This document shows positions 358-26,402 of a stretch of 26,431 nt of DNA, one piece after another; position 1 is the first letter of the stretch; the number at the start of each line of letters is the position of its first letter. The notes under the pieces were generated by a model. The model saw nothing but the letters and a program-made list of their open reading frames with translations, was not told where the DNA came from and made no database searches. This stretch comes from an uncultured Gammaproteobacteria bacterium (lineage in GTDB: Bacteria > Pseudomonadota > Gammaproteobacteria > UBA9214): the NCBI GenBank assembly GCA_963827755.1, contig CAWHCQ010000006.1, positions 1 to 26,431 on the forward strand. Direction: 5' to 3'. Position numbers and translations under genes: made by a program.

Positions 358-1015
358 TCTGATTAGCCCTGGCTGGAAGAAGCCTGGATGATATAAAAGC
401 CTGGGCTCATACACCACGCGCTGACGGTGTCTGAGCCACCGGACGCGGCCTGGCTGCGGGGTTTCCCCGACCGGCTACCCTGCAGCCCGGGAAACAACCA
501 TGCGCGCGAGGCCCCACGATGACCCTGCTGCCCTGACACGCACTGGCAATGATGCCAGTGAAACGACCGACCGCGCCGGTCACTCTGCTCAAGCCCGCCT
601 CTTCCGTGCCTGGACTTGCAGCGCCCCGGGTACCGCGTCGGTGCGCTGCTGCCAAATCTTTCCGGACAGGAACCGACGACCCGGCCGGGGCTAGCCCCAT
701 GCTGAGAAGCTGGAACCCATCAATCCACTTGTCCGTCTTCAGCCACGACGACGGGAACGTACGTGTAATACGGCGGGGTCGGGGATGGCGGTGAGTCGAT
801 CTCCGTATAGTTGCACACAAACGGGGGCTTGGTTCCAATAATAGGCAAGTCAGGGTTGGGCATGAGTCCCGGTCCCGGATTTAACAGGGGGACGGGCGTT
901 TTCGCGCGTACCGATCAAGTAGGGCGCAGGTACGAAGGGAGGGTCGCCATCCGGACCGACAGGGGGAGGGTCTGACGCCAGTAGCGTTATTGTAGTGTTG
1001 GGAGGAGTGCCAGTA

Positions 1016-4800: not shown

Positions 4801-4953
4801 AATGCCATTGACATAGAAGTCCTTGCCATTGACCTTCAGCTTCCAGCCGTTTTCATCCTTGTATGTCGTTACCTTGTCAGTTGCCTGTGCCTGGCTGACA
4901 AACGGGAGATAGCAAGCCAGTAGAATCGTTAAAACGCTGCAGACTTTCTTCAT
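1850..4953 (-). CDS. Clan GH-A (GH2/GH158-like) TIM-barrel glycoside hydrolase fused to a C-terminal probable outer-membrane beta-barrel; about 1030 aa once rejoined across indels at about 3380-3400
   Basis: Signal peptide MKKVCSVLTILLACYLPFVSQAQA; upstream in-frame ATGs reach 5094. Acid/base motif FAFGNESNY, nucleophile region PVVFFEFGSD and GGFVFEWRDEWWK. The shifted frame reads TPGGPPGTGIEELDDRERIELYDFNGKYEGDKYDFTAFYHVPRYHW into ORF 1850..3262. That half is rich in alternating amphipathic strands and ends FMTIFYFDYNFK. Confidence 0.8.
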
Positions 4954-5115
4954 ACATCCGATCAAATTTAAACCTGCCATAGTGCACACCCCGTATTTCC
5001 AGAGATAGTATTGTGAAGAATTTTCAGGATTCGCATTGTTTGAAGTCATTTTCGTTGTGTGTTTCATAGTCATTCCTGTGTGTATGTGGTTCATGCGAAG
5101 CCTGTCCTGATCCGG

Positions 5116-6832: not shown

Positions 6833-6907
6833 GTCATTTCCCGCATCCTGCTGTAAACAGGGCAAATACGGCACCTCATGGTGGTCGTGTTTTTCATAAT
6901 GCACATA

Positions 6908-7453: not shown

Positions 7454-8523
7454 TCACTTGTCAGCGACATAGGTAATGTATTTCAGCGGCACGCCTTCGT
7501 AACCCCACGCCTTGATCTGTCTCGCCCAGCCGCCCAGGTTGGCTCTCGATACACGGATAAGATGCAGCTTGTTTATTTCTTCAACATCCTTCTCGAAATG
7601 TATCTTGTCGACGATTTTCTCAACGGACTCGCGGCCCCATTTGAAAGTCGGCTGCCCGAGCAACACCGGGACAATTCCTTTTTCCACGTAGGGGAGCTGC
7701 GCCGGCAAGGCATCAACCGCAACAATCTTCAATTTTTGAGGATCAATTTTGTCCATCAATGCTTCACTGAAGAAGGCCCATCCCCCGACCATTGCCCAAC
7801 CGCCGAGGTCAGGATAGGCCTTGTTGACCAGCAACACCTCGTCTGCAGCCTGCTGTGCTGTTTCTTCATGATTGAATACACCCACGATCTCCATCTCCGG
7901 GTACTTCAACGCCGCACTTTTAACGCCCTCAACCCGTTTTTGCAGGTTTGGAGCATTACTGCTTCCGGCCAGGATGGCGATTCGGCCCTTGTTGCCCATG
8001 AGTTGTGCCAGTTCATCCATGACACTCTCACCGAGCTCGACATCATCCGCCCCGTAGAATGCAAATCTTTTCGGATGCCGGTGCATCACTGTCAAAGGTC
8101 ATCACCGGCACACCGCGATCCACGGCCTTGTTGATTGCCGCTTCAAGCAGTTGCTCATTCGAACATGAAACCAGGATGGCATCCGTGCCTTCATCGACGG
8201 CGGCAAGGATCCGTTCCGCCTGGCCCCTGGCATCCTCCAGTAACGGGGTACGCCAGTCGATCTTGACGTCTATCTTGCTGTATTTATCCGACAATTTCTT
8301 TGCGGCCGCCTCCGCACCCAGTTTTGCCGACATGAAAACAGGATTGGTCTCGCTCTTGGCCACCATGGTAATGGTGATCGTCCTGACATCCTCGATTGCC
8401 GGTGTCATCAAAGTACTGGCAGCCGGCGACCATGAACAGTGCTACTGTATATCCTGCCATCCGGCAGAGTGTCGATGATTCTGTTCCTGTCATCGAAATC
8501 ATTTTCAGGAAGCCGCGCATCAC
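7454..8523 (-). CDS. Periplasmic sugar-binding protein (RbsB-like, PBP type 1), probable lipoprotein; frameshifts near 8405 and 8070; start uncertain (8460-8523)
   Basis: Signal-like VALFMVAG-C. Then ITMVAKSETNPVF...AINKAVDRGVPVMTFDSDAP, continuing RFAFYGADDVELG...IAILAG..NAPNLQKRVEG...IVAVDALP, typical of ribose/monosaccharide-binding proteins. Confidence 0.85.
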
Positions 8524-10008
8524 TCAGGCAATCTCCGTTGCGGCATGCGGCGGCATATCATCGTCGGCCACGGCAATTTTACCGCGCCGCTGCTCCAGTG
8601 CCCGGCGTATTTCATACGATCTTTCTTCGGTGATCTTGAATGACGCGACCGAGTAGATTGCTATCAGTGCGGCAGCCGCCGGAATCAGGGTGTCGCACAA
8701 TCTCATAAGGATGAAGGTATCATGATGTTTGTGCACCAACCATGGCGACATCAAAACCGGTCGAGTTAAGCAGGAATCCCGACATTCCAAATGCCAGGGC
8801 CATGCCAAGCTTGACCACCCACCAGTAGATCGATCCGAACATGCCCTCGCGCCGGTGACCGGTTTCAAGCTCGTCCAGGTCGCAGACATCGGCAATCATC
8901 GAACCCATCAGCGTAAACAGCCCTCCCATGCCGACGGCAATAAAGGGCGCCGGAATGAGCAGCTTCCAGATGACCAGCGGGTCGTAGCACCACCATTTCA
9001 GCAAACAGCCGAACAGGGTTACCGACGTTGCAATGATGAAGGTCCTGCGCTTGCCGATCCTGGTCAGACACCCAGGAAACCGCGGCGATGGAAATCAAGG
9101 TGGCGATTGTAGTGACGGTTCCATACAAGCCCATGTATTTGGCACCCAGGTCCGTGTCACCACCGGAGACGTAATAGATGGTTATGTATGAACCAAAAGA
9201 ACTGACAAGCATGATCCCGTTAAACAAAAAGAAGGTACCCGCACAGAGCTTGAGAAACTCCCGGACGTTTGATGGTAATCATGAAACCCCTGCCAAATTC
9301 TACAAGATTCTGGCGAAAACCCCTGGGTTTGTCAGCAGCATCCGTTGTTTCAGGAAGGGGCCGTTCACGGCAAAAAATCGCACTGCTTACACCGAGTACA
9401 GCAACGAAAACACCAATGATGATTGCCAGGGTGCGGGCGCCTTCGACCGAGTCGGAAAAAAACCGGTCATTTTCCATGATCGCATAAAACCAGGGGAGCG
9501 AGATCCATGAAAATTGCCCCATAAAATTCTGCGACGCCATGAGCCGTGTCCGCTCATGGTAATCGGGCGTCATTTCATAGCCGAGTGCAACCCAGGGTGT
9601 GGCAAACACGGTATAGGCGAGATAAAACAGGAAGGAACCCGCCAGGAAAAACCAGAAATAAAACATTTCACTGTAGCCGGCAGGCAGCTGCCACATCAGG
9701 GCGAAGATCAGCCCGACGAGGATCGAACCGATAAATATGTACGGCCGGCGCCGGCCGAATCGGGAGCGGGTGTTATCCGAAACATAACCCATCACCGGGT
9801 CGGTCAGGGCATCGGTGAAACGCGGAATCGCCTGCAGGGTTCCGACCAGCGCCGGGTTCATACCGAGGCCGACGTTGAGCACGATCGACATGTAGCCGAT
9901 GGCACCGCCGAGCATGTTGTTTGCAATCGCACCCAGACCATAGGCAAACTTTTGACCGAAGGAGAGGTGATCTTCCGGTGCCGTAACATGGTCTACATGC
10001 AAACTCAC
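8524..10008 (-). CDS. GPH family (MelB-like, MFS_2) sugar:cation symporter; frameshifts near 9265, 9065 and 8725
   Basis: GTG start after a GGGGGGAG RBS. Motifs KFAYGLG, DALTDPVMGYVSDNTRSRFGRRRPYI, ALGYEMTPDYHERTRL, MIADVCDLDELETGHRREGMFGSIYWWVVK, with multiple TM helices. Confidence 0.92.
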
Positions 10009-10277
10009 ACTCCCCCCTTGCCCGAATTGTTTCTAATAAACGCATCAACCGGGCCGATTTATTCTTTTCGCGCTAACTCCGATGCCGGCAACCCCGCACT
10101 GGCGCGCCCGGGCTGCCCTGTTGGTCTGCCGCCTGCAAGCGGCATGACCTGCACCCGTCGACGTCGATGTTCAGGCGCAAAAAACCATGCGCGACACCAA
10201 CTCCATGGGGCTTCTCAAGGCCGCCGCACAACCGGTCCGCTATCACGCTCCCCCGCCCGGCGAGACGGAGTGCGGGC

Positions 10278-13089
10278 TTATAGTTTCGGGGCTATCTCGG
10301 AAACACGAACCCAGTCAACCTCCAGGGTCTGGGGAAATTCCGAGTTGGCTGGCGTCGGATTCTGTTCACCGCTGCCCAGTGTCCCGCCCATTGCCAGGTT
10401 GAGAATCATGTAGAACGGCTTGTTGAACTCTTCCATGGTGTCATCGATTTCACGCTCAAATACCACGACGCCATCATCAAGCTCATTGATCCTGATCTTG
10501 AACAGGAATCGTCTTGGGTTCCACTCCACGGAGTAGATGTAAAAGCCTGTGTCCAGATTAGGACTGCCTGGCAGCGAGGCTAAACCACCTTCCGAAGCGT
10601 GCCCTCCCTGCAGAAAATTCGTGTAACAGGTATCCAGGGCTGGGTCGTATTGCGGATTGGATTCATCGCACCAGTGCAGGGTGGCATGGGTGTTGAACTT
10701 GGTAGCACCGTTATTGTTGGCGGAGGGTGGCGTCCACACCTCCATGATGTCGATTTCACCAACAATCGGCCAATTAACTCCATCAAGAATACTGGATCCC
10801 AGCATCCAGAAGGCCGGCCAGGCGCCTAACCCCGTGGGTACTTTCATGCTTGCCTCGATTTTCCCGTACTTGATGTCGTTGAGCGATTCGGCTGTATTGA
10901 TCCTCGCGGAAAAGATCGTGTCGCCGCGGTTGGTCAGCACGCATTCCACGGGAGTATCCCCGAGTTTGGCGCTGTCCCAGTAAATCCCACCGGACGCCCC
11001 GTCATGCTCGAGTTGGAGGCGGGCGGTAACGGCACCCGCGGGGGCGATCTCGGTAATTTCGACCAGGGTCCAGTCTTCGGGGTTACCAGGAGTAGGCGCG
11101 AGCTCGATGTCGCCGACCCCAGCCGGTGGTGGCACGATCACACGCTCATGCGTGACGAGCACGCTGCTGGCGCCATCCAGGAACAGCAGCTTGACACGCG
11201 CTGTACCAGTGAATGTGTTTGCAAGAGCCCAGTTCTGAGCGTACACCGAGGCGGCTACCTCTTCGCCCGCGACCACGGAGATGTCCTGGTAGGCCTGCGC
11301 GCCAATACCGGACTGCAGTAGCTCAAAGTCGCCATCCTCTGCGCCGGGACCCGTAAAAGAAAATATGGTGGCTAAGGGTATTGGTGCCGACACTGTCCCA
11401 GCCGATAGTCAGGGGCAGGCCATTCACCGCACCTTCCTCGAAACTGGGATTCATGAATAACTGCGCTGCCGCCAGGGCTTTCCGGGAGGACCTCATCGCC
11501 GTCCAGTTCCCCGCAGACCGCGGTGATCTTCAGGATGCCGTCTTCGACCTTGAGCACGTCCGGGTCATCCGAGTAGTACTGCCACTCGTTGTTGCCCCAG
11601 CCTATTTGATCGGGGCCGGTTCCAGGGGGCTGGTAGGCGAATTCCGGCTTCCAGTTATTGGGATTTCCGGCAAGATTATCGCGCCAATCGTAGCTTCCAT
11701 CAAAATCATCGAACCATCTCTCTACGTAGTCATCCGGGGGAAATTCCACCTTCGGCCCGATCAAACTCGCGCTATCGATGATAAACGCTGCTTACATCAG
11801 CTAATCTGCCTGGATCACCTAACGGGAATGGTTCAACGCTATCTGCAGGAAATTTGGGAAACTGAAGATGCAAGCACCTGGAAACGGGCCGTGACAGTAT
11901 CCGGGGTGGTAGTGGCCGTGACTTCCATCTTGGTCCATTCGCCCGGCGGCAGGTAGAGCCTGCCCGATTCGGGGTCGTCCTCACCGCTAGCCTGCAACTC
12001 AACGGCGTATTCTCCAAAACCGTCTTCAAAGTCGCCATCGGTCGAAAAGATCAGTGACAGCAGCAAGAAGTTTGGCGAAAACAGACTGCCGTCGAGGTTT
12101 TGCGCCATGATGGAGGCGGTGTATGTCTCGCCACCGACGACGTCAACATCCTGGTAGGCACCCGTTACCTCCGGTTCAGGAAAAAACTTGATGAAGTAAG
12201 TCGGGCCGAACAACCGCATGTGAATTGTCGCCCGCGTGAGCACGATAGTCTTCGATGGCTTGACCGCCAGCAGCACAACGGGTGTTGTCGATATTGTCGA
12301 CACAATCCAGGGCGAAATTAAGTACCTGGTCCCAGCCCTGTGGAATGAACCCCTGATTAGGATCACCCAATCCGGATCATCAAAGAAAGCGAAAGACCCT
12401 TCGAAATCGCCGTTTTGCAACAGCTCCTGATCCTCGGGAGACGTCTGCGTCTCGTTACAATCATCAAAGGGGAATCCGAAAGTCCCGCTGCCACCGCCCG
12501 GCAGATAGGTATCAAAGCAAAAGGCATCCAGCGCGGTACCCGTGCCGACTCTGGCCAGGCTGATGTCAGGGTCCATATTCAGGAATGTAATCAGGTCATC
12601 GAGATCAGTATCAAAAGTCCCACTGTCTAAATCCAGGGGCAAGCCATACAAGCTGATCCGCTCGCGTACTTCCTCTGTTATCACGACCCCGTTCCCGTGG
12701 TCCTGGTCCTCATCGAGGCTGTAGATGAAACTTAACAGTCTGGCGACCCTGGTATCCGCGGGAGAGCTGCTACCGGTAAGTTGAACCGCCGTAATGATCG
12801 CTGCGCAACGCGCGCTGCCTATGTCATACAAGCCGCCAATATCACCGATGGCAAATGTGATTGTTTCACCGGGTAAGCAGGAGAATTCACTGCGAGAATT
12901 TGTGAAACCTTCCTGGGTTGCGGTTTTGAAGGTAACGCCCTCTACATCCGAGAACACCAGCTTACCCGAGCTTTTACCGACAGGTCCCGAAGGCGTGCCG
13001 TCGCCTGTGCCGAAACAACCCGTCAGGACAATGGACAGGACACTGATGGTCAAAAAGTGTGACAGGCGTATGAAAGATTTTGAATTCAT
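10278..13089 (-). CDS. Multidomain surface lipoprotein: N-terminal domain, CBM4-like module, and GH16 endo-beta-1,3-glucanase containing a second inserted CBM4-like module (about 935 aa rejoined; several frameshifts)
   Basis: Lipobox VLTG-C. CBM4-like start LLQNGDFE and AYQDVDVVGGETYTAS. GH16 motifs WFDDFDG, GWGNNEWQYY, DGILKITA, SARINT, YGKIEA, WPAFWMLG, catalytic GEIDIME, FNKPFYMILNLAMGG, FPQTLEVDWVRV. Confidence 0.85.
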
Positions 13090-13311
13090 GAGTAAATCTC
13101 TATGTTATTTGCTGAATGACCGACAATGAATTTCACAACCCCGGCATAGCGAATGTGCCTGGCGGGCGGGTGGATTTGTAGTTGGCATCGTGGAATATTT
13201 GAATTTCTGCAGGTGTCTGAGCTAACCGACATCAGACAATTCGATTCAGATAATCGTGGCAAAAATATTTATTTAGTTTCATTGTGATGGTATTTTGTTG
13301 TCATTAAGAGC

Positions 13312-13338
13312 GCATAAATGCTATATAGCACTCTATGC
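13312..13338. promoter_or_regulatory. Candidate operator: palindrome TGCTATATAGCA with GCATA/TATGC outer arms, in an AT-rich divergent promoter region
   Basis: A perfect 12-bp palindrome at 13319-13330, flanked by GCATA (13312-13316) and TATGC (13334-13338), lies between the divergent GH16 gene and the regulator. Function is inferred. Confidence 0.5.
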
Positions 13339-13449
13339 TTGAATGATCGGGCCTGTCAAGCTCATTGACTTTCAATCATTAAAACATAAACAATAAGATG
13401 CATATACTTGGAATTAATATGAAAAAATCAAATATTATAATATTAAAAT

Positions 13450-14601
13450 GTGCTTTCAAGACTGACTCACGCGCGGCACAAGTACGCGCCGGGGATTATC
13501 AATTCGGAATATGACAACTTGGATATACCTCAACACAAATATCTGATTGCGGAAGATAAAATCAGGGAAGTCATCAGCCGTCTTGAAATCGATGACAAGC
13601 TTTCGGGTGAACGGGTATTAGCTAAAGAACTCGGCATCTCGTACATGACGGTGCGAAAAGCTATTGAGAAGCTGGTCACATGTGGCGCCCTTTACAAGAT
13701 TCCAAAAAAAGGCACCTATGTTGCTGACCCGCGGGTAGTAATAACTAAAACAAAAAATATCGGCTACTTCCTCGACGCCAGCATCAAAGACGGATTATCC
13801 AGCCCCTATTACTCCCTGGTTTTCGATGCACTTGAAAAAGAAGCAACAAAATTCGGCTATGCATTGATGTACTGTTCGGATTTCGATGAATCCATCGCGA
13901 AAATGGAAAAAATCGATGGGGCGATTATCAGTTGCTTTCCACGTATAGAAAATATTGTTCAGCACGTGAATACGATGGTGCCTGTCGTTTGTATTGATAA
14001 CTGTTCAGCAGATAAATCCATACCTTCAGTAACCATTGATAACTTCAACTCTGTGGTTGAATCAACCGGTTATCTTTTCTCTCTGGGTCACAGGCGGGTG
14101 GGTTTCATAACCGGCCTGGATGATTCGGATATCGGCAACAACAGGCTTGCCGGATATCAAAATGCCCTGAAAACCCATGGCATTGGCGAAGATCCGGATC
14201 TTGTATACAGAGGCGACTATACATTTGAGACCGGAATAAAAGCTGCCGACTATTTCCTCTCACTGGACGAACGACCAACGGCGATTATGTGTGCAAACGA
14301 TATAATGGCCATCGGCGCAATAAAGGAAACTTTACTGAAAGGACTCAAGGTACCCGAGGATATCAGCATCATAGGGTTTGATGATATTACTATTGCTTCC
14401 CAGATGACTCCATCTTTAACAACGGTATCAGCACCCATCAAGGAAATTGCGAAACATTCCCTGGCGATGCTCAACTCGATAATGTATGGCACCAGGCTGG
14501 AAAATACGCACATTGCCCTGCCTGCAAGATTGGTGCTCAGGAACACATGCGCAACAAACAGAAACAGCATAATCACCGCGAGGATGCGGAAGTCACACTG
14601 A
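13450..14601 (+). CDS. Transcriptional regulator with a GntR-type wHTH and a LacI-type sugar-binding domain (AraR-like architecture); the true start may be TTG 13519
   Basis: DKLSGERVLAKELGISYMTVRKAIEKLV...KGTYV is a GntR HTH. LGHRRVGFI, PTAIMCANDIMAIG and VPEDISIIGFDD...PSLTTV are LacI effector-domain motifs. Confidence 0.93.
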   Translation: MLSRLTHARHKYAPGIINSEYDNLDIPQHKYLIAEDKIREVISRLEIDDKLSGERVLAKELGISYMTVRKAIEKLVTCGALYKIPKKGTYVADPRVVITKTKNIGYFLDASIKDGLSSPYYSLVFDALEKEATKFGYALMYCSDFDESIAKMEKIDGAIISCFPRIENIVQHVNTMVPVVCIDNCSADKSIPSVTIDNFNSVVESTGYLFSLGHRRVGFITGLDDSDIGNNRLAGYQNALKTHGIGEDPDLVYRGDYTFETGIKAADYFLSLDERPTAIMCANDIMAIGAIKETLLKGLKVPEDISIIGFDDITIASQMTPSLTTVSAPIKEIAKHSLAMLNSIMYGTRLENTHIALPARLVLRNTCATNRNSIITARMRKSH

Positions 14602-14612
14602 CGTAGAAATAT

Positions 14613-15557
14613 TTAACCCTGCATGACCAGTTTCGGCTTGCGATCCACGGTGAAGAGTCCCCAGTGCTTCTCCGGGTCAAGCGGATCAGCAGAGCCTTTC
14701 CAGGGTTCATCAAAGGCCTCGAAGACAAAGGTGAGAATCTTCTCCTCCGTGGTCCATTCGAGCAGTTGCTCATAGTAGATCGCCTGCAGTTCCTCGGAGG
14801 CATTCCAGGACTCGAGCCCGCGCCCGTTGGACGCGGTCGTCCAGCCGGCCTCGGTAATCACCACCGGCTTTCCGGGGTAGTGGTTCACTACATCATGATA
14901 ATTCTGCTTGGTGTATTCCAGCGCATCCTCGATGGTGCGGTATTCCCAGGCGGGATAGGTGTGCACGGAGATAAAATCCAGTTCGGCCGCCAGCGGCTCC
15001 AGCTTGTAGGTCCAGGGAACGTAGTTTTCGCAAAAGGTTACCGGCTGACTGATCTCGCGCTTGATTTTGTGCACATAGGCTATCAGGCTGTCCACCGGCA
15101 CCATGTGATCCGTCCACTCGACGCTGGCCTCGTTGCCCACGGACACCGAGGACACGATATCCGGGCAGCGGCTCGCCAACTCGATCAGTTTTTCGGCCTG
15201 GCTGTAGTTTGCCTGCTGATTCGCAGTGAGGGTCTCATCACTGAATTCCGCCCCCCAGGGACAGTGCGGGTTGCTTATTTCAGCGGCCAGATCCATCCCC
15301 AGCATGATCTTGAAATCGAGGCCTTCCTTGCCGATCACCTCGAGGACCGTTTCGGCATGGGGGCTGCAGTCATACAGCCTGAGAAATTTCCAGTTGTTCG
15401 CCAGGATATTGAGATCCTCGCTGACCTCTGCATAACTCGGGAAGACGCCTGCTTGCGGAGATTGCCCTTCCCGGTAACCGGAATAACATATCGCGTTGCC
15501 GTGTCCTGCCTGCATGGCAATCCGGCTTACCGCCTGTTTTACGGGTTTACTAGACAT
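14613..15557 (-). CDS. GH17 family beta-1,3-glucanase/transglycosylase, no signal peptide
   Basis: ICYSGYR, LRLYDC, acid/base SVGNEA, FISVHTYPAWE, nucleophile VITEAGW, FEAFDEPWK, EKHWGLF. The start overlaps the upstream GH17 stop by 8 nt. Confidence 0.9.
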   Translation of the reverse strand: MSSKPVKQAVSRIAMQAGHGNAICYSGYREGQSPQAGVFPSYAEVSEDLNILANNWKFLRLYDCSPHAETVLEVIGKEGLDFKIMLGMDLAAEISNPHCPWGAEFSDETLTANQQANYSQAEKLIELASRCPDIVSSVSVGNEASVEWTDHMVPVDSLIAYVHKIKREISQPVTFCENYVPWTYKLEPLAAELDFISVHTYPAWEYRTIEDALEYTKQNYHDVVNHYPGKPVVITEAGWTTASNGRGLESWNASEELQAIYYEQLLEWTTEEKILTFVFEAFDEPWKGSADPLDPEKHWGLFTVDRKPKLVMQG

Positions 15558-16452
15558 ACTTGAGTTTTCCGTCTTTGTCCCAGAGGCCCCAATAGGCCCC
15601 GACGTCGCCTTCCGCGTCTACCTTCCAGGTCTCGTCGAACGCCGAGAAATAGAAGATTTCGATACCCTCCTCTTCGGCCCACTGGCAGGTATCGATAAAA
15701 TATTTTATGGCGTTTTCAAAAGACGGTACGGCGCCCCCCTCGGGCGTGCCCACATTCGGCCAGCCGGTTTCACTGATAATGACCTTCTTGCCATTCGCTG
15801 CCTGGACGGCACGATGATACATATCTTTCATGTAGAGCAGGGAGTACTCGGCCGGGCAACTCTCCCAGAAAGGGTAGCAGTTGGCGAGGATGACATCACA
15901 GGCCTCTGTCACCCGCGGGTGATCGACAAACTTGAAATAGGCATCGACATAGCCGACATCAATATCCGGAACGGCCTGCTTCGCACGACTGATATAGTCG
16001 ATCAGTTCATCCTCGGACAGGTCACCGCGAAGCAGCACCTCGTTGCCCACCGCCAGAATGCCCGCATGGCCGGCCCTGGCGACTTCGATGGCGTTGGCCA
16101 GTTCCTTCTCGTTATTGTCCCGGTCGTCGTTCAACCAGACACCGACCATGGTCTTGAGCCCGTTTTCAGCGGCAATCCCGGGGATCAGTTCATTGCCTTC
16201 CGTGCAGGAAAAGGTACGTATCCAGTTGACACAGGGCTGGATGAACTTCAAGCGCTCACGGATCTGTGCTGCACCGATTTGCGTGCCCGGGCCCTGACCC
16301 TCTATATAGGGACTGAAGCATATTCCATGAATCTTCTGCTCGAGAATCTTGCGAACGATTGCAGCCAGTTCCTTGCCGGATAGCCTGGAAACATCGATTC
16401 CGGCCAAGGCCATTTTTTTGGCCAAAGCCTCTTTTTTACTGTATCTGCCCAC
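15550..16452 (-). CDS. GH17 family beta-1,3-glucanase/glucosidase, no signal peptide
   Basis: GTG at 16452 follows a purine-rich RBS; the ORF track extends it to 16545. Motifs GICFSPY, WIRTFS, LAVGNEVL, LANCYPFWE, IISETGWP, YFSAFDETWK..EGDVGAYWGLWD. Confidence 0.92.
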   Translation of the reverse strand: MGRYSKKEALAKKMALAGIDVSRLSGKELAAIVRKILEQKIHGICFSPYIEGQGPGTQIGAAQIRERLKFIQPCVNWIRTFSCTEGNELIPGIAAENGLKTMVGVWLNDDRDNNEKELANAIEVARAGHAGILAVGNEVLLRGDLSEDELIDYISRAKQAVPDIDVGYVDAYFKFVDHPRVTEACDVILANCYPFWESCPAEYSLLYMKDMYHRAVQAANGKKVIISETGWPNVGTPEGGAVPSFENAIKYFIDTCQWAEEEGIEIFYFSAFDETWKVDAEGDVGAYWGLWDKDGKLKYV

Positions 16453-16509
16453 TGCGCCCCCCTTTTCCTGGCATCGCTTTACGGCCGGAATTGCCCCCAA
16501 CCCGACCCT

Positions 16510-16540
16510 GTGTGAACCGCTCGATATAGCACGGTCACAC
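16510..16540. promoter_or_regulatory. Imperfect palindrome containing a 9/12 match to the candidate operator, upstream of the GH17 pair
   Basis: GTGTGAACCG...CGGTCACAC arms enclose CTCGATATAGCA (16520-16531). It lies in the divergent GH17/glgC intergenic region. Confidence 0.35.
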
Positions 16541-16999
16541 CGCAATCTATACCAGGCTTGTTTCCTTTACCAGTGCTGGTTTGCCGACAAGCACTGGCAT
16601 TCCCCCGGTTATAGCAGAAAAAAATGATGACATGCTCCACTTACAACGGCTGTAACCCGCGGCGCCGGGTACCAACCATGAATCATGAGAACATGAATGT
16701 CAGAAAGCGATTCTTCAACGCTCCCTGCAGTGAAAACGATCATGAACCGGTGGGCGGGTGGATACTTCCCGGGCGGAAAACACAACTCACGGGGTGTTCT
16801 CCGGCACAACTGCTATACCCTGGATTAACAGGAAAACTCAATCGGAGTCTGCTAAGCTGGCCGGGGTGTTTTCACAGTCATGGTTTCGCTATTGCCTTGC
16901 CGCCAGGTGAAAGGGGCGGGGAAAAATTGATGCTGCCATGTAAAGAAAACAGGAGAGCACGATCAAAACGGCAATCAACAAGCAGGTAGCGGACGCCAG

Positions 17000-18250
17000 A
17001 TGCCCACAAGCAAATCCCGACATATTTCACTGCTGACCCGCGAAACCCTGGCCCTGGTACTGGCTGGCGGACGAGGATCGCGTTTACATGAACTGACAAG
17101 CCGGCGTGCGAAGCCTGCCGTTTATTTCGGAGGCAAGTTTCGCATTATCGATTTTCCGTTGTCCAACTGCGTCAATTCCGGCATTCGGCGAATCTGCGTA
17201 CTCACCCAGTACAAGGCGCATTCGCTGATCCGTCATCTGGTGAGAGGCTGGAGTTCCTTCCAAAGTGAGTTGGGTGAATTTGTCGAAGTACTGCCGGCCT
17301 CCCAACGCACCGACTCCGGCTGGTATGCCGGAACTGCCGATGCTGTCTACCAGAACCTGGATATCATCCAGTCATTGCGGCCCAAATACATCCTGATTCT
17401 GGGCGGCGATCATGTCTATAAAATGGACTATGGCCCGATGTTGGCACATCACGAAGAAAAGAACGCCGACATGACGATCTCGTGCATAGAGGTTCCGCTG
17501 GAAGAAGCCACGGAATTTGGTGTCATCGGTGTTGATACAGATAACCGGGTCGTGTCTTTCGATGAAAAGCCGTCTGCACCTCGTCCACTGCCCGGATCTG
17601 AAGACAGGGCACTGGTATCAATGGGCAATTATGTCTTCAATACCGAATTTCTTTACAAGCATTTGCAGCTGGATGCCATCAATCACCAGTCAAGCCATGA
17701 TTTCAGCAAGGACATCATTCCATCCATCATGCATGACTCGCAGGTTTTTGCCTGCCGGTTTCAGGATGTAGAGGCGAGCGTAGAACCCTACTGGCAGGAT
17801 GTAGGAACGCTGGATGCATTCTGGTCAGCCAACATAGGCCTCGCGGATGTCACCCCGAAACTCAACCTGTATGACCAGCAGTGGCCGATTCTCACCCATC
17901 AGAGCCAGTTGCCGTCTGCCAAGTTTGTCCTGCAAGTCAGTATGCAGGACTCGATCGTCTCCGGAGACTGCATCATTTCCGGCGCATCGATCGAGCGCTC
18001 TGTATTGTTCTCCAGTGTCCGGGTTCATTCCAATGCAGATGTGAAAGAGTCTGTCGTCTTGCCGGAAGTTGTTATCGGAAGTAATTGCCGAATAAAGCGT
18101 GCCATCATCGATCGCGGCTGCCGGCTGCCAGATGGCATGGTTATAGGAGAAGACCGTGATGAAGATGCCAAACGTTTTCGAGTGACCTCAACCGGCGTAG
18201 TACTGGTGACGCCGGAGATGCTGGGCCAGGAACCGACAACGCTTCGATAG
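17000..18250 (+). CDS. glgC: Glucose-1-phosphate adenylyltransferase (ADP-glucose pyrophosphorylase)
   Basis: [65 protein letters not shown] and a C-terminal beta-helix. Intact 416-aa ORF. Confidence 0.96.
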
Positions 18251-18355
18251 AATACCCGGTGGATTTCGTTCTGACTAAAATGTCCCGATAACAAGACAGT
18301 CATTCGGGTGAGCCCCGATTCTGTTGCTTTAACTAAAGTGGAGTAGATCACAAAA

Positions 18356-21300
18356 ATGTCTATTGCAAACACCACTGCCGTGTCCGGCGAGTTTATGACT
18401 CTGGCGGGAGAACGTTATTACCTGATACGCAACGTTGACAAGATGACTCCATTTTTCATCAGCATCATTTCAAATGACGATCACTGGCTATTTATTTCTT
18501 CAACCGGAGGGCTTACGGCCGGCCGGGTGTCACCCGATACGGCGCTGTTCCCTTACATAACGGTCGACAAGATCCATGAGAGTATCGCCGCATACGGGCA
18601 GCAAGACGCTGATCAGTACCACGATAGACAGCCACAGGTATGAGTGGGAACCCTTCAACAAAGGGCATGTCGGTCGCTATGCGACCAACCGCAACCTGTA
18701 TAAAAACATTCTCGGCAACAAGCTGTGCTTTGAAGAAATCAACCATGATCTGGAGCTGGCATTCCGCTACTGCTGGGTGAGCAGTGACACCTACGGCTTT
18801 GCGCGCCAGTGCGAACTGGAGAACATTGGCCAGGAGAGCCGCAGCGTGGAACTGGTCGACGGATTGCAGAATATTCTCCCGGCCGGTACGCCGCGCTTTG
18901 CCCAGACAAACGTCAGCAACCTGGTGGACGCGTACAAGTGGAGCGAACTGGATGAGCAGACAGGGCTGGGCCTGTTTACGCTCTATTCCGGTATCACGGA
19001 CCGGGCCGAGCCCTGCGAGTCCCTCAAGGCCACGACTGTATTTTGTCTTGGCCTGGAGGGGCAGAAGGTGCTGCTCTCATCGAGGCAGCTCGACAACTTC
19101 CGCCGCGATGAGCCGTTGACACAGGAAGTCCGCACGCGCGGTATCCGCGGGGCGTACCTTGTCAACGTGTCACTGGACCTGGCGCCGCAGACATCCCGGC
19201 GCTGGCAGCTGGTTGCCAACATCGAACAGAGCCAGACGCAGGCAGTCAGCCTGCGCCATCAGCTCGGCGACCCGGCTGCGCTGGCCACGGCGATCACCCG
19301 CTCCGTTGACAAGGGCTCGGAAGAACTGGCTCGCATCATGGCACGCGGAGATGCACTCCAGGACACCGCCGAGGAAAACGTGTCCGCACACCATTATGCA
19401 AACGTGCTGTTCAACATCCTGCGCGGTGGTATCTTCGATAACCAGTACCAGGTGTCATCACGGGATTTCAGCAACACCATCAAGATGTTCAACCGCAACG
19501 TGTATCAGCGCAACCAGGCACTGCTCGATGCGTTGCCCGAACAGCTGGACTACATCAAGCTGCATTCCACCATCAAGCAACAGGGCGACCCGCAGCTGGA
19601 ACGCCTGACTTGCGAGTACCTGCCCATCACCTTTGGCCGCCGGCACGGCGACCCCAGCCGGCCCTGGAACCAGTTTGTCATCAAGCTGAAAGACAAACGC
19701 GGCAACCACCTGCTCTCCTATGAGGGCAACTGGCGTGATATTTTCCAGAACTGGGAGGCCCTGGCCTTCAGCTATCCCGAGTTTATCGAAAACGTGATTG
19801 CCAAGTTCGTCAACGCCTCGACTGTGGATGGCTACAACCCTTACCGGATTACCAAGCAAGGCATCGACTGGGAAGTCGAGGAACCCGATGACCCGTGGAG
19901 CTACATCGGCTACTGGGGTGATCACCAGATCATTTATCTCCAGAAACTGCTGGAACTTTCCAGCCAGTTCCACCCGCAGCGCCTCGCTACCCTGTTGCAC
20001 CAGCCTGTCTTCAGCTATGCCAACGTGCCCTACAGGATCAAGCCGTTTGAAAGCCTGCTTGAGGACGCCAAGAGCACCGTGGTGTATGACCATGAACTGG
20101 CGGAGCGTGATCGAGCAGCGGGTCGCTGACAAGGGCGCCGATGGCAAGCTGGTGCTGGATACCGATGGCGAGGTGTACCAGGTCAACCTGCTCGAGAAGC
20201 TGCTGGTGTCACTGCTGGCCAAGCTGGGCAACCTCGTCATCGATGCCGGCATCTGGCTCAACACCCAGCGCCCGGAATGGAACGATGCCAACAACGCGCT
20301 GGTTGGCCAGGGGTTGTCCATGGTGACCCTGTACTACATGCGCCGCTATGTGAGTTTCCTGCTGCATTTACTGACAGAGGAATCAGGTACCGTCAACCTG
20401 TCCCGGGAAGTGGCGCAATGGCTGACTGAAACCGCTGCGGCATTGAGCGAGATCCGGCCGCAACTGCAAGGCGGACCGGTTACTGCCAGGCGGCGATACC
20501 AGTTACTGGTCGAGCTCGGACAGGCGGCATCCCGATACCGGCAGACCGTCTACCGGCAAGATTCATTCGCCGGCCAGGTGCCCCAGCCGCTGGATCAGGT
20601 CACAGCCATGCTGGACGATGCCCTGGCGGCGATCGACCACAGCATCGAGTGCAACGTGCGCGAGGATGGTCTCTACCACGCCTATAACCTGCTGCATATC
20701 AAGTCGAAGGAAGTCGAAATCGATCGCCTCTATACCATGCTGGAGGGTCAGGTGGCCGCACTCAGTTCCGGCGCTATAACCCCGACCCGTGCGGTAGAGA
20801 TGCTTCAAACCCTCTTCGAGAGTGATATTTTCCGCGCCGATCAACATACATTCATGCTCTATCCGGATCGTGAGCTGCCGAGTTTCCTGGAGAAGAACCG
20901 CATACCGGCTGAACAGGTCAAATCGATTCCTGTGCTCATGCGGATGCTGGAACAGGGGGAAGACCGCATCGTCGTGCGCGACGCGGACGGCTACTATCGC
21001 TTCAGTGCGGAATTCCAGAATGTCGGCGATCTGAATATACAGCTGGATGCCCTGGAGCCGCAGTATGGTGATGAGCTCAAGCAGGCTCGCAAACCCTTGC
21101 AGGAACTCTTTGAAGAGGTATTCAATCAAAAGTCTTTCACCGGGCGCTCCGGCGGCATGTTCGGCTTCGAGGGACTGGGCTGCATCTATTGGCACATGGT
21201 TTCCAAGCTGCTGCTGGCAGTGCAGGAGAACTTCTTTGCTGCCCGGGCACAGGGGGCGGATGAAGAAACCTGCCAGCAGCTGGGGCATCTCTACTACTGC

Positions 21301-21801
21301 GTTCGCATGGGAATTGGATTCAACAAGACCCCGGAGGAATACGGTGCCTTCCCGACAGACCCCTATTCCCACACACCCAAACACGGTGGCGCCAAGCAGC
21401 CGGGTATGACAGGCCAGGTCAAGGAAGAGGTGCTGACCCGCTTTGGCGAGCTGGGTGTACGCGTGCGTGAGGGCGCTGTTCGATTCGAACCGGGACTGCT
21501 GCGCGCCCGCGAGTTTGTCACGAAGCCGCGGTCCTTTCGCTTCCTCGACGTCGATGAGCAGTGGCAGGAACTGGGCGTGCCGGAATCAGGGCTGGCATTT
21601 ACCTGGTGCCAGGTACCCTTCGTTTATCGCCTGGATGATTCCGCCGCACCAAAGGTGACACTTGTCCTCGATGATGACAGTCAGCAGACCCTGACGGAGC
21701 TGGCGCTGCCAACCGGGTTGAGTGCCGAACTGTTTCGGCGCAGCGGCCGTATCCGCCGGGTTGAGCTGCTGCTGGGAACAAGCCAGTTGCTTTCTGAATA
21801 A
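18356..21801 (+). CDS. GH149 beta-1,3-glucan (laminarin) phosphorylase, about 1147 aa rejoined; frameshifts near 18585 and 20105
   Basis: WLFISSTGGLTAGR, FNILRGG, YLPITFGRRHGDPSRPWN, YEGNWRDIFQNWEAL, DGYNPYR, GYWGDHQIIY, RPEWNDANNAL, FTGRSG..FGFEGLGCIYWHMVSKL, YGAFPTDPYSHTP, QPGMTGQVKE. Size and motifs fit GH149. No signal peptide. Confidence 0.88.
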
Positions 21802-21923: not shown

Positions 21924-22066
21924 AATGAATTCGGGCCTATTGAAACACTGCTGGTCGAATGAATTCGGGCCTACTGAAACATTGCTGGTCGAATGAATTC
22001 GACCCTACTGAAACATTGCTGGTCGAATGAATTCGGGCCTACAGTAGGGCCGAATTCATTCGGCCA
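21924..22066. repeat. GTAG-type REP cluster: four tandem copies at 34-bp period plus one inverted copy
   Basis: AATGAATTCG starts at 21924, 21958, 21992 and 22026. On the minus strand the unit reads GTAGG(C/G)(C/T)CGAATTCATTCGACCA (first copy degenerate). The inverted copy GTAGGGCCGAATTCATTCGGCCA is at 22044-22066. The cluster lies between convergent genes. Confidence 0.85.
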
Positions 22067-22155
22067 ATAACCTTGCCATCAGTCATGGCGGTCGAAACGC
22101 GGCAATCCCGTTCTTCCATGCAGTCGTCTCAATGAAGAATAAACCGGCGTTTTCA

Positions 22156-23596
22156 CTAACTGACCGCTCTCGCCCCCCTTCGGGCCTCCAGTTCGCAGAC
22201 GGATTTCGTGGGCCTTTTGTTCTGAAAGATCGTAGCGCTTCATAACGGCCATGGCGATTAGCGTTCCGGTTGCGGGGACAAGGATATAGGCAAGCCTGAG
22301 ACCGTCCAGGGCTTCAGGGGTTTGTACGGCGATATCCTGGTCGAATCCAACGAGTTTGAGTATCAGGCCACTCATCAGTCCTGCAATTGCAAAGCCGAAT
22401 TTCACCATCCACCAGTAGATCGCAGCAAATGTACCTTCGCGGCGCGACCCGTTTGTGAGTTCATCCAGGTCGCAAACATCCGCGGTCATGGACATCATCA
22501 GCGTGAATAAGCCGCCGATGCCAAAGGCAAACAACGGCAGTGGAAGAAACATCATCAGCGGGTTGGCCGGTTGAAAGCACCACCAGAACAGGGAATAACC
22601 GACAATGGAAATCGACTGGGACACAAGAAAAGTATTTTTCTTGCCGATTTTCTGCGACATGAACGTGATAATGGGAATGACCAGAAAGCAGGTTGACAGT
22701 GCGCTGAGCGTGCCGAACCAGGCAGGCCATGTCCCTGCAATACCCGGATCACCCTGGAACATATAATAAACAATAATAAACCATGAAAACCCGGCGACGG
22801 TATTGAAGGCATTGAAAACAAGAAAGGTCGCAATGCAGAGCTTCGTGAAGGGTTTGCACCTGAATGTGTCGACAAACCCCTTGAAGAGACTACGTGTGTT
22901 TTCACCGATTTTTTTAAACGACAACTCCACCATATTTTCGGGCCTGACAGGCTGGGTTTTGCAAAACAGGGCGGGCACAATGGCCAGGCACAGGCAAAAA
23001 ATTCCCACCCATATGGAAAGTTCGCGGGCACCGGCATCGGACGTAGCGAAAACTTCGGGATCGTAAATCACAACCCAGAACCAGGGCACGATCACCCAGG
23101 CCCATTGCCCGATCCACTGCGCCACCGCCATCAGCCTGGTGCGCTCGTGAAAGTCGTTGCTCATCTCATAACCCATTGCCACATAGGGCGTCGAAAATAT
23201 GGTCATTCCCAGGTAAAACACCAGTGAGACAAGGAGAAAATAGGTGAAATTATAGGTTTGGGAGTTTTCGGGATAAATCTGCCACATGACGATGAAACTA
23301 ACGCCGGCGATAATCGCCCCCACAAAAATGTAAGGCCGCCGGCGTCCCCAACGGGATTTGGTGTTGTCGGTAATAAAACCCATTATCGGGTCGGTGAGTG
23401 CATCGAAAAGCCGGGGAAGGAAAAACAGGATTCCCCACAGCATCGGATCCATCCCCAGCCCCTTCACCAGAACAACCATAAAAATGGCCAGGGAAGCGGG
23501 GAACATCTGGTTGCCCAGCATACCGATCCCGAACGCAACTTTCTGTCCCAGCGGAATTCTGTCTTCAGGTGCAGTGGGATAGTGTTTTTCCTTCAT
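22156..23596 (-). CDS. Second GPH family (MelB-like, MFS_2) sugar:cation symporter; probable 1-nt frameshift near 22195 (ORF track runs on to 22079)
   Basis: TAPEDRIPLGQKVAFG, DALTDPIMGFITDNTKSRWGRRRPYI, MGYEMSNDFHERTRL, MTADVCDLDEL..GSRREG.F..IYWWMVK. Removing one base gives the ending EIRLELEARRGARAVS*, which matches the paralogue's EIRRALEQRRG. Confidence 0.93.
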
Positions 23597-23753
23597 AAAG
23601 ACTCCACATCAAGGTTTGTTATCAGAATACAGGCTGCAAGAATAACCGGATTCACTGCATGCGTCAGCTTCTTCTAAAAAGCAAAAGCTAACAAGTAGAG
23701 ATTTCCGGCAGTATCAACCGAGCGGGAGGCACTGATGGATAAATCACGATTTA

Positions 23754-24047
23754 GAGTGACACAGGGTCGGACCTATACAACATGCTGAAATTACTTATTA
23801 CTCGCCCCTGATTCGGGCTGATTTAAGGGCTTAAAATATCCTTTTCGGCTCCCAAATGACGCGCCTAAGAAATTCGGAATTTCAATACACAGTACATTAC
23901 CTATACGACAACATTGCATATGGATATTTCCTTAAACAGACTATTTTGGCATCGAAAAAGCGCCTTTAAGACAAGAATGTGAACCGAAATTACAGCTTAC
24001 TCATTCTGCTTCAACTGATTATAGAGGTCCGACCCCGGTGGCCACTC
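23754..24047. repeat. Decayed inverted-repeat pair enclosing an AT-rich segment (possible MITE/IS or REP-bounded relic)
   Basis: GGGTCGGACCT (23764-23774) and AGGTCCGACCC (24025-24035) are exact inverted copies. The next 15 nt inward match at 9 positions, and GAGTG/CACTC match further out. No target-site duplication was seen. Confidence 0.4.
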
Positions 24048-24124
24048 GGACAAGTATCCTGGTTTGTAGAACTTAACAAGTCAGGTGCATGCATGATGAG
24101 TGATCAACCCGGATGCAGCCTTCC

Positions 24125-25540
24125 CTAGCCAGCCTCCCGCCATTCGATGCTCCGGTCATCAGTGTTACGTGCAATATCTGTCACGTCAGCAGCCTTCATG
24201 GTGACCAGTTCCTCGGCGCTGCTGGGATGGATAGCAATCGTGCTGTCGAAATCGGCCTTGGTCGCACCCATCTTCACCGCTACGGCGAAGCCCTGCAGCA
24301 TCTCGTCGGCGCTGTCACCGATGATGTGGATGCCGACCACGCGCTGCTCTTGCCCGGCGCATACCAGTTTCATGGCAGTGACCGAATCATGCGCCGTCAA
24401 TGCATACCGCATGGGGGTGAATTCGCTGGCATAGACTGTTACTTCATCAGCAAAGCATTCACGCGCCTCGGTCTCTGTCATACCCACGGTGCCAATAGGC
24501 GGGTGAGAGAACACCACGCTGGGAATATTGGTGTAATCGACTTTGCTGTCGGACTGATTGTTGAACAGGCGCTCGGCCAGCCTGCGACCGGCAGCAATAG
24601 CCACCGGCGTCAATGCTGCCCTGCCGGTGATGTCACCGATGGCATAGACCCCGTGGACATTGGTGTTCTGATAGTCATCCACCGGAATAATCCCATTGGG
24701 CATTGCTTCAATCCCTGCTGCTTCAAGATTGAGCTTGCGCGTGTTGGGGCTGCGGCCGACGGCCCAGATGACACTGTCAAACCCGCCCAGGGCGCTGTCG
24801 TCTGCCGACTTCACCACGATACCATCGGCATGACCTGACAGTGCGACCGCCTGGAATCCGGTATGCACACGGATACCCTGGCGCTGCATTTCGTTTTTCA
24901 GGACAGCACTGATCATGGGGTCGAACTGCTCCATAAGGCGATCTTCCATCGCCATGACGGTGACGCTTGAGCCAAGGGCATTGAGCACACCGCCCAGTTC
25001 CACAGCAATATAGCCGCCTCCAACAATGGCCACCCGCTGCGGCTGCTCCCTCAACTCAAAGAAGCCATCGGAAGTGATACCCAGTTCGGCGCCAGGTACC
25101 GAAGGCACAATGGGTTGGCCGCCGGTGGCAATCACAATGTGATCTGCCGTGTAATGAATTCCATTGACTTCTATGGTTTTGGCGTCGACAAACCTGGCAT
25201 GACCGGACAGGTAGTCAATGCCGTTTTCATTGACATGCCTGTTCCAGAACGCATTGATATTGTTTATATATTCATCACGTCCCGTGACAAGTTTTCGCCA
25301 GTCCGTATTGCCGCGCCTTGCGTGAATACCGAAGTCGCCGGCAATGTCCACGGCATGGGCCAGGTGCGCGGCATACCACATCACTTTTTTCGGTACGCAG
25401 CCATTGTTTACACAGGTGCCGCCGATGCGGCCAGCTTCAATAATGGCCACTTTCCTGCCGTGGAAAGCAGCCTTCTCGGCGACGGCCAGACCACCGCTCC
25501 CGCCTCCGATAGCAATGAGATCGTAATGTTTTCTGCGCAT
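24125..25540 (-). CDS. garB: Glutathione-disulfide reductase family (GorA-like) flavoprotein, NADH-type glutathione amide reductase-like
   Basis: IGGGSGG, redox motif [13 protein letters not shown], and C-terminal [17 protein letters not shown] and [10 protein letters not shown] carry acidic residues where NADPH-type Gor has Arg, as in Marichromatium gracile GAR. ATG at 25540. Confidence 0.88.
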
Positions 25541-25658
25541 GTCCGGATTCTCCTGGTCATTTTGCAGGGCGGATCTACCCGCCCTGCAGTTTCTTTTCAA
25601 AAATGATGGCCACTACAACTCCAGCAAACGATTTCCTGGTTGCTGAAACACGACATAC

Positions 25659-26402
25659 CTAGGCGGCTTCAGCTTTGTTCAAATACTGCTCCAGGGCTTC
25701 GGAACCACCAATGTAGTCACCGTTGATAAACACCTGCGGCACCGTGGATCGTCCCGAGACGGCACGCAGTGTAGCCTCGGTATAGTCCCGGTTTAGGACC
25801 AGCTCCTCAAAGCGAATACCAGCATCGTGCAACATGCCCTTGGTGCGCACGCACCAGGGACATCCCTCTCGGCTGAACACCGTGATATCCAGCGGCTTGG
25901 ACACTGCGGGGGCTATCCACGCAATCATGGTGTCTGCATCGGAGACCTCGAAGGGATCACCCGGAACATCCGGCTCGATGAACATCTTTTCGATAACACC
26001 ATCCCTCACCAGCATGGAATAGCGCCAGGAACGCTCGCCGAAGCCGAGGTCGTTCTTCGTCACCAGCATGCCCATGCCGCGACTGAAGTCGCCGTTGCCA
26101 TCCGGCAGGAAAGTGACCTCGAAGGCCTTCTGCTCGTTGCGCCATTCATTCATGACAAACGCATCGTTGACCGAGATACAGATGACTTCGTCGACGCCGG
26201 CTTGTCTAAAAGCCGGTGCCAGCTGGTTGTAGCGTGGCACATGTGTCGACGAACAGGTCGGGGTGAAAGCGCCCGGCAGTGAAAACACCACCACGGTTTT
26301 TCCCTTGAAGACATCATCACTTGTCCTGTCGACCCATTCGTGGTTATGACGGGTACGAAAAGTAACTTGTGGTACCTGTTGACCTTCCCGATTTTCTAAC
26401 AT
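25659..26402 (-). CDS. garA: Hybrid peroxiredoxin (Prx5)-glutaredoxin, glutathione(-amide)-dependent peroxidase
   Basis: [27 protein letters not shown] and RSWRYSMLV form the Prx5 part. CPWC and [14 protein letters not shown] form the Grx part. GGAG RBS; 247 aa; directly upstream of the reductase. Confidence 0.92.

Follow-up and report, generated by a model that had tools for sequence, protein, structure and literature searches.

Phosphorylases of glycoside hydrolase (GH) family 149 make alpha-glucose-1-phosphate (PMC5827456), and in Gammaproteobacteria the type II GH149 clusters have been given a role in breaking down beta-1,3-glucan from outside the cell (Kuhaudomlarp et al, 2018; PMC5827456). 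We analysed a window of 26,431 nt from an uncultured Gammaproteobacteria bacterium of UBA9214 (contig CAWHCQ010000006.1, assembly GCA_963827755.1), in which glgC, the gene for glucose-1-phosphate adenylyltransferase, lies directly upstream of a GH149 homolog. The window shares with the type II clusters an extracellular GH16, cytoplasmic GH17, an inner-membrane transporter of the major facilitator superfamily (MFS; PF13347) and a regulator, and we assign to it the same catabolic role. It differs from them by the lack of a TonB-dependent receptor and by its regulator, a hybrid of a GntR-type helix-turn-helix (HTH) and a LacI-type domain in place of a histidine kinase and response regulator (PMC5827456). 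The position of glgC directly upstream of GH149 is a further feature of the window, the word 'adenylyltransferase' being absent from the main text of PMC5827456, figures and supplements aside. Judged by its gene content, the window is a predicted laminarin (beta-1,3-glucan) utilisation cluster of the known GH149 type from a marine gammaproteobacterium, and the physical link between glgC and GH149 gives it the look of a variant specific to one lineage.

That glucose-1-phosphate from GH149 feeds alpha-glucan storage is an already published idea; what may be new is the physical linkage of the two genes. Beidler et al (2024, Nat Commun; PMC11093988) put forward as a hypothesis that GH149, by releasing glucose-1-phosphate, supplies the precursor for alpha-glucan storage in bacteria, and Miksch et al (2024; PMC10811738) assume a conversion of spring glycans to glycogen in benthic bacteria. 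The metabolic logic of the window is the same, whereas these papers argue from polysaccharide utilisation loci of Bacteroidota and from community transcripts; a physical glgC-GH149 link is described in the available text of neither, and 'glgC' does not occur in that of PMC11093988. Full-text search found no published report of glgC linked to GH149, although figures and supplements (Fig. 7 of PMC5827456; Fig. S15 and Table S11 of PMC12175321) could show one. Among the matches listed for GH149 and glycogen, no title or abstract mentions a linked glgC, and a full-text search of the laminarin literature for glgC or glucose-1-phosphate adenylyltransferase found only unrelated papers.

We give a probability of about one half to the reading that glgC and GH149 form a unit within a laminarin cluster that would couple phosphorolysis to ADP-glucose. 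The gene identities, their arrangement, the kept motifs and the frame breaks are observed directly, whereas co-transcription, the origin of the breaks as artefacts, the recurrence in relatives and any glycogen flux are inferred.

The glgC-GH149 pair

In the open reading frame (ORF) listing and the sequence, glgC (17000-18250) and the GH149 homolog (18356-21801) both lie on the plus strand and are separated by a spacer of exactly 105 nt (18251-18355), as the first-pass annotation, which had described a co-oriented pair about 105 nt apart, had read them. Its statement that glgA, glgB, glgX and glgP are lacking holds as well: GlgA, GlgB, GlgX, GlgP, Pgm and GalU of E. coli (NC_000913) have no match in the window (tblastn, E <= 1e-5), and Pfam detects no glycogen enzyme besides GlgC among the 35 window ORFs. 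The window gene thus differs from glgC of the E. coli glgBXCAP operon in having no glgA, glgB, glgX or glgP nearby, and it is not adjacent to the partners of a classical glg operon (glgBXCAP or glgCA).

GlgC converts glucose-1-phosphate and ATP to ADP-glucose. The window protein, an intact ORF of 416 aa, shares 52% identity with E. coli GlgC across 417 residues and, in the PDB, hits the GlgC structures from E. coli and from Agrobacterium at E 3e-143. It passes both NCBIfam models, with 633.8 bits on NF001947 (cut-off 470), the glgC equivalog model, and 495 on TIGR02091 (cut-off 424.9), and it has the expected Pfam domains, NTP_transferase (PF00483, residues 18-280) and a C-terminal beta-helix (PF24894 and PF25247, residues 304-403). 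Its glycine-rich loop LAGGRGSRL aligns to LAGGRGTRL of E. coli, and all six E. coli positions R32, K42, Y114, D142, E194 and K195, which we take to be the catalytic and substrate residues, are kept in the alignment to 5l6s. We saw no sign of an inactive GlgC. Residue 35 (17102-17104) is R where E. coli GlgC has K39, presumably the fructose-1,6-bisphosphate activator site, so that the window enzyme may respond to another allosteric effector.

The spacer is consistent with a single transcript. A GGAG stands 11-14 nt upstream of the GH149 ATG, and no sigma-70-like site was found in 16400-18500 (2.1 expected), a range that includes both the spacer and the glgC/GH17b intergenic region. Both terminator-like matches of this range lie within the spacer, that of the plus strand being a weak hairpin with a 5-bp stem (18304-18318). 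The fold of the spacer is not more stable than that of shuffled sequences (z = 0.54). As the hairpin tail ends ~28 nt before the GH149 ATG, little room would be left for a separate promoter. Co-transcription of glgC and GH149 is thus plausible from the sequence.

Downstream of glgC, the first-pass annotation had placed a GH149 phosphorylase; the identity of the gene stands, but the annotation had missed that it is not a single ORF. Two large pieces match Pro_7066 (PDB 6hq6) at E 1.5e-154 and 3.3e-144, in a near full-length alignment to chain residues 109-610 and 597-1171 (6hq6/6hq8; PMC6771811), and cover positions 75-579 (803 bits) and 581-1132 (783 bits) of the 1134 of NF058639. Each piece alone stays below the 1150-bit cut-off of this model, which the sum passes only with the breaks read through. 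NWRDIF (19734-19739) and EWNDAN (20278-20286) align to R470/D471 and W651/N652/D653 of Pro_7066, so that both the RD motif for sugar-phosphate recognition and the catalytic WND motif (PMC6771811) are kept and a phosphorylase role is predicted. In contrast to Pro_7066, the window gene is split by two +1 shifts into three overlapping ORFs in three frames in place of one frame of ~1150 codons. Its closest relative, P0002 (full-length, 1147 aa, 91% identical), aligns by tblastn with residues 1-83 on 18356-18604 (frame 2), residues 78-584 on 18588-20108 (frame 3) and residues 585-1147 on 20110-21798 (frame 1), from which the gene is laid out as follows:

18356-18586, plus strand: GH149 piece 1, N-terminal 77 codons in frame 2 (tblastn with P0002 residues 1-83, 83% identity)
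18587, plus strand: first +1 break, one extra base (ATC-g-CCG); P0002 reads DKIHESI|PHTGSK, with no residue lost
18588-20108, plus strand: piece 2, 507 codons, with the RD motif at 19734-19739 (89% identity to P0002)
20109, plus strand: second +1 break, one extra base (CGT-g-ATC); P0002 reads ELAER|IEQ, with no residue lost
20110-21801, plus strand: piece 3, 563 codons and stop, with the WND motif at 20278-20286 (91% identity to P0002)

The second break separates the RD motif from the WND motif, which leaves them on different pieces; if the shifts are real, no single piece would be an enzyme. Programmed frameshifting was considered for the two +1 shifts and dropped, since similar breaks, in both directions, occur in six unrelated genes of the window.

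Occurrence in GH149 loci and in the lineage of the window

GH149 loci were collected by scanning genome contigs with an alignment of 16 GH149 sequences, and the best 80 of 587 confirmed relatives (45-69% identical to P0002), all from representative genomes, were compared together with as much as 10 kb of flanking sequence to either side. Of the cluster partners of GH149, GH17a is found in 39 of these loci, GH17b in 37, homologs of the MFS transporter MFSb in 34 and relatives of the regulator in 18. Window synteny is shared with loci L002, L005, L009 and L010. In the closest loci (L005, L008, L009 and L010), GH149 is the immediate neighbour of the GH17b-GH17a pair and shares its strand, and L002 carries, all on one strand, MFS, GH17b, GH17a, GH149, GH16, GH16, a GH158-like gene and a lipoprotein gene. 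Measured against L002, the window carries GH149 and glgC as one inverted block, placed between MFSb and GH17b.

The nearest relatives of the window proteins (71-91% identity) are metagenome proteins, such as P0002 for GH149 (91%) and P0122 for GlgC (90%). As a proxy for co-location, we looked for identical 'longest_contig' values between the top-120 lists for GH149, GlgC and GH17b, counting only pairs that agreed in source label and whose contigs measured 7 kb or more (a near miss, 21563 versus 21564, was not counted). GH149 and GlgC share three contig sizes, 10623 (P0005/P0134), 10327 (P0006/P0146) and 7101 (P0044/P0171), with 0.10 expected by chance, and GH17b and GlgC share 7345 (P0259/P0151) and 28441 (P0294/P0136), with 0.05 expected. 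Pairing GH17b with GH149 as a positive control gave only two shared sizes, 8119 (P0244/P0007) and 29508 (P0277/P0012), with 0.10 expected. The shared sizes 4561 (P0031/P0139), 3383 (P0056/P0237) and 3344 (P0058/P0130) were rejected because the contig is too short for both proteins or the sources differ; P0139 and P0130 still fall in the GlgC clade of the window.

In a quick maximum-likelihood tree of the 120 GlgC hits and E. coli GlgC, the five linked GlgCs and that of the window belong to one clade of 26 rows with a support of 100 in the Shimodaira-Hasegawa-like approximate likelihood ratio test (SH-aLRT), and are spread over its sub-branches. Together, these data suggest that glgC may be part of the laminarin cluster across one whole lineage, with GlgCs 72-90% identical to that of the window; shared contig sizes speak to co-location, not to gene order.

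The surrounding laminarin cluster

The other features of the predicted cluster, with the frame breaks located by means of related-locus ORFs and Pfam profile coordinates, are the following:

3-354, minus strand: N-terminal fragment of a GH1 beta-glucosidase (Pfam Glyco_hydro_1, E 5e-35) running off the contig end; matched by L036 and L048 in two frames, one break (~219)
1016-1819, minus strand: conserved lipoprotein of ~267 aa without a family, its N-terminus judged by eye, downstream of the GH158-like gene
1856-5094, minus strand: secreted protein of ~1060 aa with a weak GH158-like domain (PDB 9oro, E 5e-5) and a signal peptide seen by eye; one break (3346-3385)
5131-6904, minus strand: GH30 (beta-1,6-glucanase-like) lipoprotein (Pfam GH30 pieces; NF053856 endo-1,6-beta-glucanase, partial), matched by L061 and L072 in frames -1, -2, -1, -2; three breaks (~6488, 5767, 5444)
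Beside GH30: a universal stress protein gene and a periplasmic-binding-protein gene, the latter with one break (8043-8095)
8575-10020, minus strand: MFSa, GPH/MFS_2 symporter (Pfam MFS_2, N-terminal half), matched by L018 and other loci in frames -2, -3, -1, -2; three breaks (~9265, 9062, 8725)
10278-13089, minus strand: GH16 laminarinase region (Pfam GH16) in three frames, with a lipoprotein N-terminal part (11839-13089, N-terminus ending LTGC) and the GH16 domain (10278-11764), matching the L002 ORFs 13677-16301 and 16398-17369 in frames -2, -1, -3; one or two breaks (~11380, possibly ~11800)
13450-14601, plus strand: regulator with GntR-type HTH and LacI-type sugar-binding domain (Pfam GntR, Peripla_BP_3, Peripla_BP_1; partial NCBIfam matches to CytR, PurR and CcpA)
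14613-15557, minus strand: GH17a, cytoplasmic GH17 family (Pfam Glyco_hydro_17, E 1.4e-6), overlapping GH17b by 8 nt
15550-16413, minus strand: GH17b, cytoplasmic GH17 family (Pfam Glyco_hydro_17, E 3e-14), no signal peptide seen by eye
16414-16999, no strand: divergent GH17b/glgC intergenic region of 586 nt, the presumed promoter region of both units
22079-23596, minus strand: MFSb, intact GPH/MFS_2 sugar:cation symporter (Pfam MFS_2, E 8e-72; TIGR00792 gph), convergent with GH149

The start of GH17b was placed at 16413 because its homologs align from residue 43-45 of a longer ORF. By eye, lipoprotein or signal N-termini are present on the GH16, GH30 and GH158-like proteins and on ORF 1016-1819, and absent from GH17a, GH17b, GH149 and GlgC; this split, together with the two GPH/MFS importers, fits uptake followed by cytoplasmic phosphorolysis. 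No TonB receptor or plug domain was found by Pfam among the 35 scanned ORFs, although one may lie past the contig ends, and the window holds neither an Rfam family (gathering threshold) nor a tRNA.

A search for shared words and palindromes among eight intergenic regions found no common palindromic operator. Two exact 12-mers are shared: GGGCGGGTGGAT, at 13164-13175 (upstream of the regulator/GH16 pair) and 16752-16763 (upstream of glgC), and CCGACCCTGTGT, at 16502-16513 (upstream of GH17b/glgC) and reversed at 23759-23770 (upstream of MFSb). They are not palindromic, ~0.24 would be expected by chance on a rough estimate, and they are not used as evidence. ORF 16624-16989 (121 aa), also upstream of glgC, has a composition that looks non-coding. 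The convergent gap between the GH149 and MFSb stops contains, at 21924-22066, three or four tandem copies of the 34-nt unit AATGAATTCGGGCCTAYTGAAACAYTGCTGGTCG (92-100% identity) closing with an inverted copy, an array that looks like a repetitive extragenic palindromic (REP)-type element.

The ~1060-aa protein (1856-5094, minus strand), which has no Pfam or NCBIfam family, is 58-68% identical to L002 17401-20580, in two frames, and both this protein and the lipoprotein 1016-1819 are kept beside GH149 clusters in L002 and L009; the two may be an undescribed beta-glucan-active pair. Flanking the cluster on the minus strand, the redox genes at 24125-26402, encoding a pyridine-nucleotide-disulfide oxidoreductase (491 aa) and a peroxiredoxin-glutaredoxin fusion (247 aa), are apparently unrelated to glucan use (Pfam). 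ORF 407-838 (minus strand) has no Pfam or NCBIfam family match. G+C content (GC) is 0.63 in the first kilobase and 0.49-0.52 in the next four, and is lowest around the regulator start (13001-14000), 0.41 versus ~0.53 elsewhere.

From beta-glucan to ADP-glucose: the proposed shunt and its rivals

In the proposed shunt, secreted or lipoprotein endo-glucanases (GH16, GH30, GH158-like) would cut the glucan and the GPH/MFS symporters would import the oligosaccharides, which two GH17 proteins, GH1 and GH149 would degrade in the cytoplasm, GH149 releasing alpha-glucose-1-phosphate. In this lineage, a canonical glgC would be the first gene of a two-gene glgC-GH149 unit, inverted with respect to the GH17 pair, and GlgC would turn glucose-1-phosphate and ATP into ADP-glucose for glycogen. 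Such a route would save the ATP of glucokinase (hexokinase) and bypass phosphoglucomutase. With glgC ahead of GH149 in one unit, induction of the phosphorylase would co-induce GlgC and so tie glycogen capacity to laminarin. The beta-glucan-to-ADP-glucose shunt, proposed in the first-pass annotation, agrees with the expected enzymology, i.e. the product of GH149 and the kept residues of GlgC, and with the layout; it is let down by its generality and by the GH149 frame. A more specific version is that one clade of uncultured Gammaproteobacteria, marine or benthic, has captured glgC as the lead gene of a laminarin-inducible glgC-GH149 operon, a dedicated beta-glucan-to-alpha-glucan converter that would commit glucose-1-phosphate transcriptionally and possibly by direct enzyme-to-enzyme hand-over. 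We hold this version only tentatively.

Several observations weigh against the shunt. The window GlgC matches none of the 80 GH149 loci (tblastn, E <= 1e-10; the best match at E <= 10 is 0.13), and neither do GlgC, GlgA, GlgB, GlgX, GlgP, Pgm and GalU of E. coli (tblastn); a link to an enzyme that consumes glucose-1-phosphate is therefore not something that GH149 genes have in general. Counted across genomes, the adjacency is absent from these 80 loci, and its recurrence within the lineage of the window comes from a proxy which, as three of its size coincidences are physically impossible for both genes, has an unaccounted error rate. In the window itself, glgA is not linked to glgC-GH149, the weak hairpin at 18304-18318 stands between the two genes, and GH149 as sequenced is not translatable into one protein. 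Since GlgC is normally under allosteric control and glucose-1-phosphate equilibrates via phosphoglucomutase, adjacency would not be needed for flux. Finally, the frame breaks leave break-free gaps of 6.8 kb (11.8-18.6 kb) and 6.3 kb (20.1-26.4 kb), with no significant departure from a random spread on a rough estimate.

Part of this evidence would equally be expected if a housekeeping glgC had come to lie beside a laminarin cluster by rearrangement, glucose-1-phosphate passing mostly via phosphoglucomutase to glycolysis and the adjacency being meaningless. The 0/80 count, the lack of a linked glgA or glgB and the terminator-like hairpin are all in line with such a neutral neighbourhood, as are the GlgC itself, which passes the GlgC equivalog cut-off, and its ordinary branch (length 0.069) within gammaproteobacterial GlgC, with no sign of specialisation. 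The genes are, however, co-oriented across a short spacer without a promoter-like site, and glgC and GH149 apparently moved jointly as an inverted block with respect to L002. Linkage of GlgC to GH149 or GH17b also seems to exist on five further contigs, with GlgCs of just 72-77% identity to that of the window, which would point to retention over considerable divergence. A neutral neighbourhood is the rival that we take most seriously, and we consider it possible but doubtful.

The frame breaks bear on a different question, compatible with either reading of the adjacency: the breaks might be real and GH149 and six other laminarin-cluster genes recent pseudogenes, the shunt then being dead in this genome. 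The 12-13 breaks, nine +1 and four -1, fall in seven genes (GH1, GH158-like, GH30, the binding-protein gene, MFSa, GH16 and GH149), while the regulator, GH17a, GH17b and glgC (13450-18250) are intact, as are MFSb and the redox genes (22079-26402); the gene call of the source itself for GH149 is a fragment of 571 aa (P0001), and neither GH149 insertion lies in a homopolymer run. Against decay, every break is a single-frame indel past which homology resumes directly, with no deletion and no nonsense codon at any of them, and their spacing is not significantly non-random on the rough estimate given above. Breaks of this single kind in seven genes fit an error-rich assembly better than decay, and the GH149 pieces, 83-91% identical to the intact P0002, with frames open over 507 and 563 codons and catalytic motifs intact, support an artefact. 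For the GH149 breaks, as for the other 10-11 of the window, indels from sequencing or assembly are the most likely explanation, and we regard decay as unlikely.

The first-pass annotation had also offered, as an alternative, that GH149 works in the synthetic direction, using glucose-1-phosphate to form an intracellular pool of beta-1,3-glucan that the cytoplasmic GH17s remodel. High cellular phosphate favours phosphorolysis. The reversibility of GH149 that it invoked agrees with the in vitro data of PMC5827456, and GH17a, GH17b and GH149 do lack signal peptides. Yet the window supports no such pool: the secreted endo-glucanases and two importers speak for catabolism, as does the match to the catabolic cluster type of PMC5827456, no glycosyltransferase or export gene was found by Pfam among the 35 ORFs, and GlgC would compete for and drain the donor glucose-1-phosphate. 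We consider biosynthesis very improbable. Least credible of all is a misjoining of glgC and GH149 from different places or strains, for which an error-rich contig with 12-13 indels and the absence of the adjacency from 80/80 reference loci could be cited, and against which stand a GC that is continuous across the junction (0.53 then 0.52), laminarin genes on both sides of glgC and the same inferred linkage on five independent contigs.

With a neutral adjacency or a dead GH149, the window would add no more than another laminarin cluster, on a contig rich in errors. The flux of carbon through laminarin ranks among the greatest in the ocean, and conversion of part of it to bacterial glycogen has been proposed to feed a second carbon loop (PMC11093988; PMC10811738). 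If glgC is indeed wired into the GH149 transcription unit, this would be direct genomic evidence for a laminarin-to-glycogen route in Gammaproteobacteria and would offer a simple, testable two-gene system, laminari-oligosaccharide + inorganic phosphate + ATP -> ADP-glucose. Should glgC have been captured into such an operon, these bacteria would bank algal-bloom carbon as glycogen more cheaply, and the window would provide the first case of a laminarin-to-glycogen loop hard-wired in a genome.

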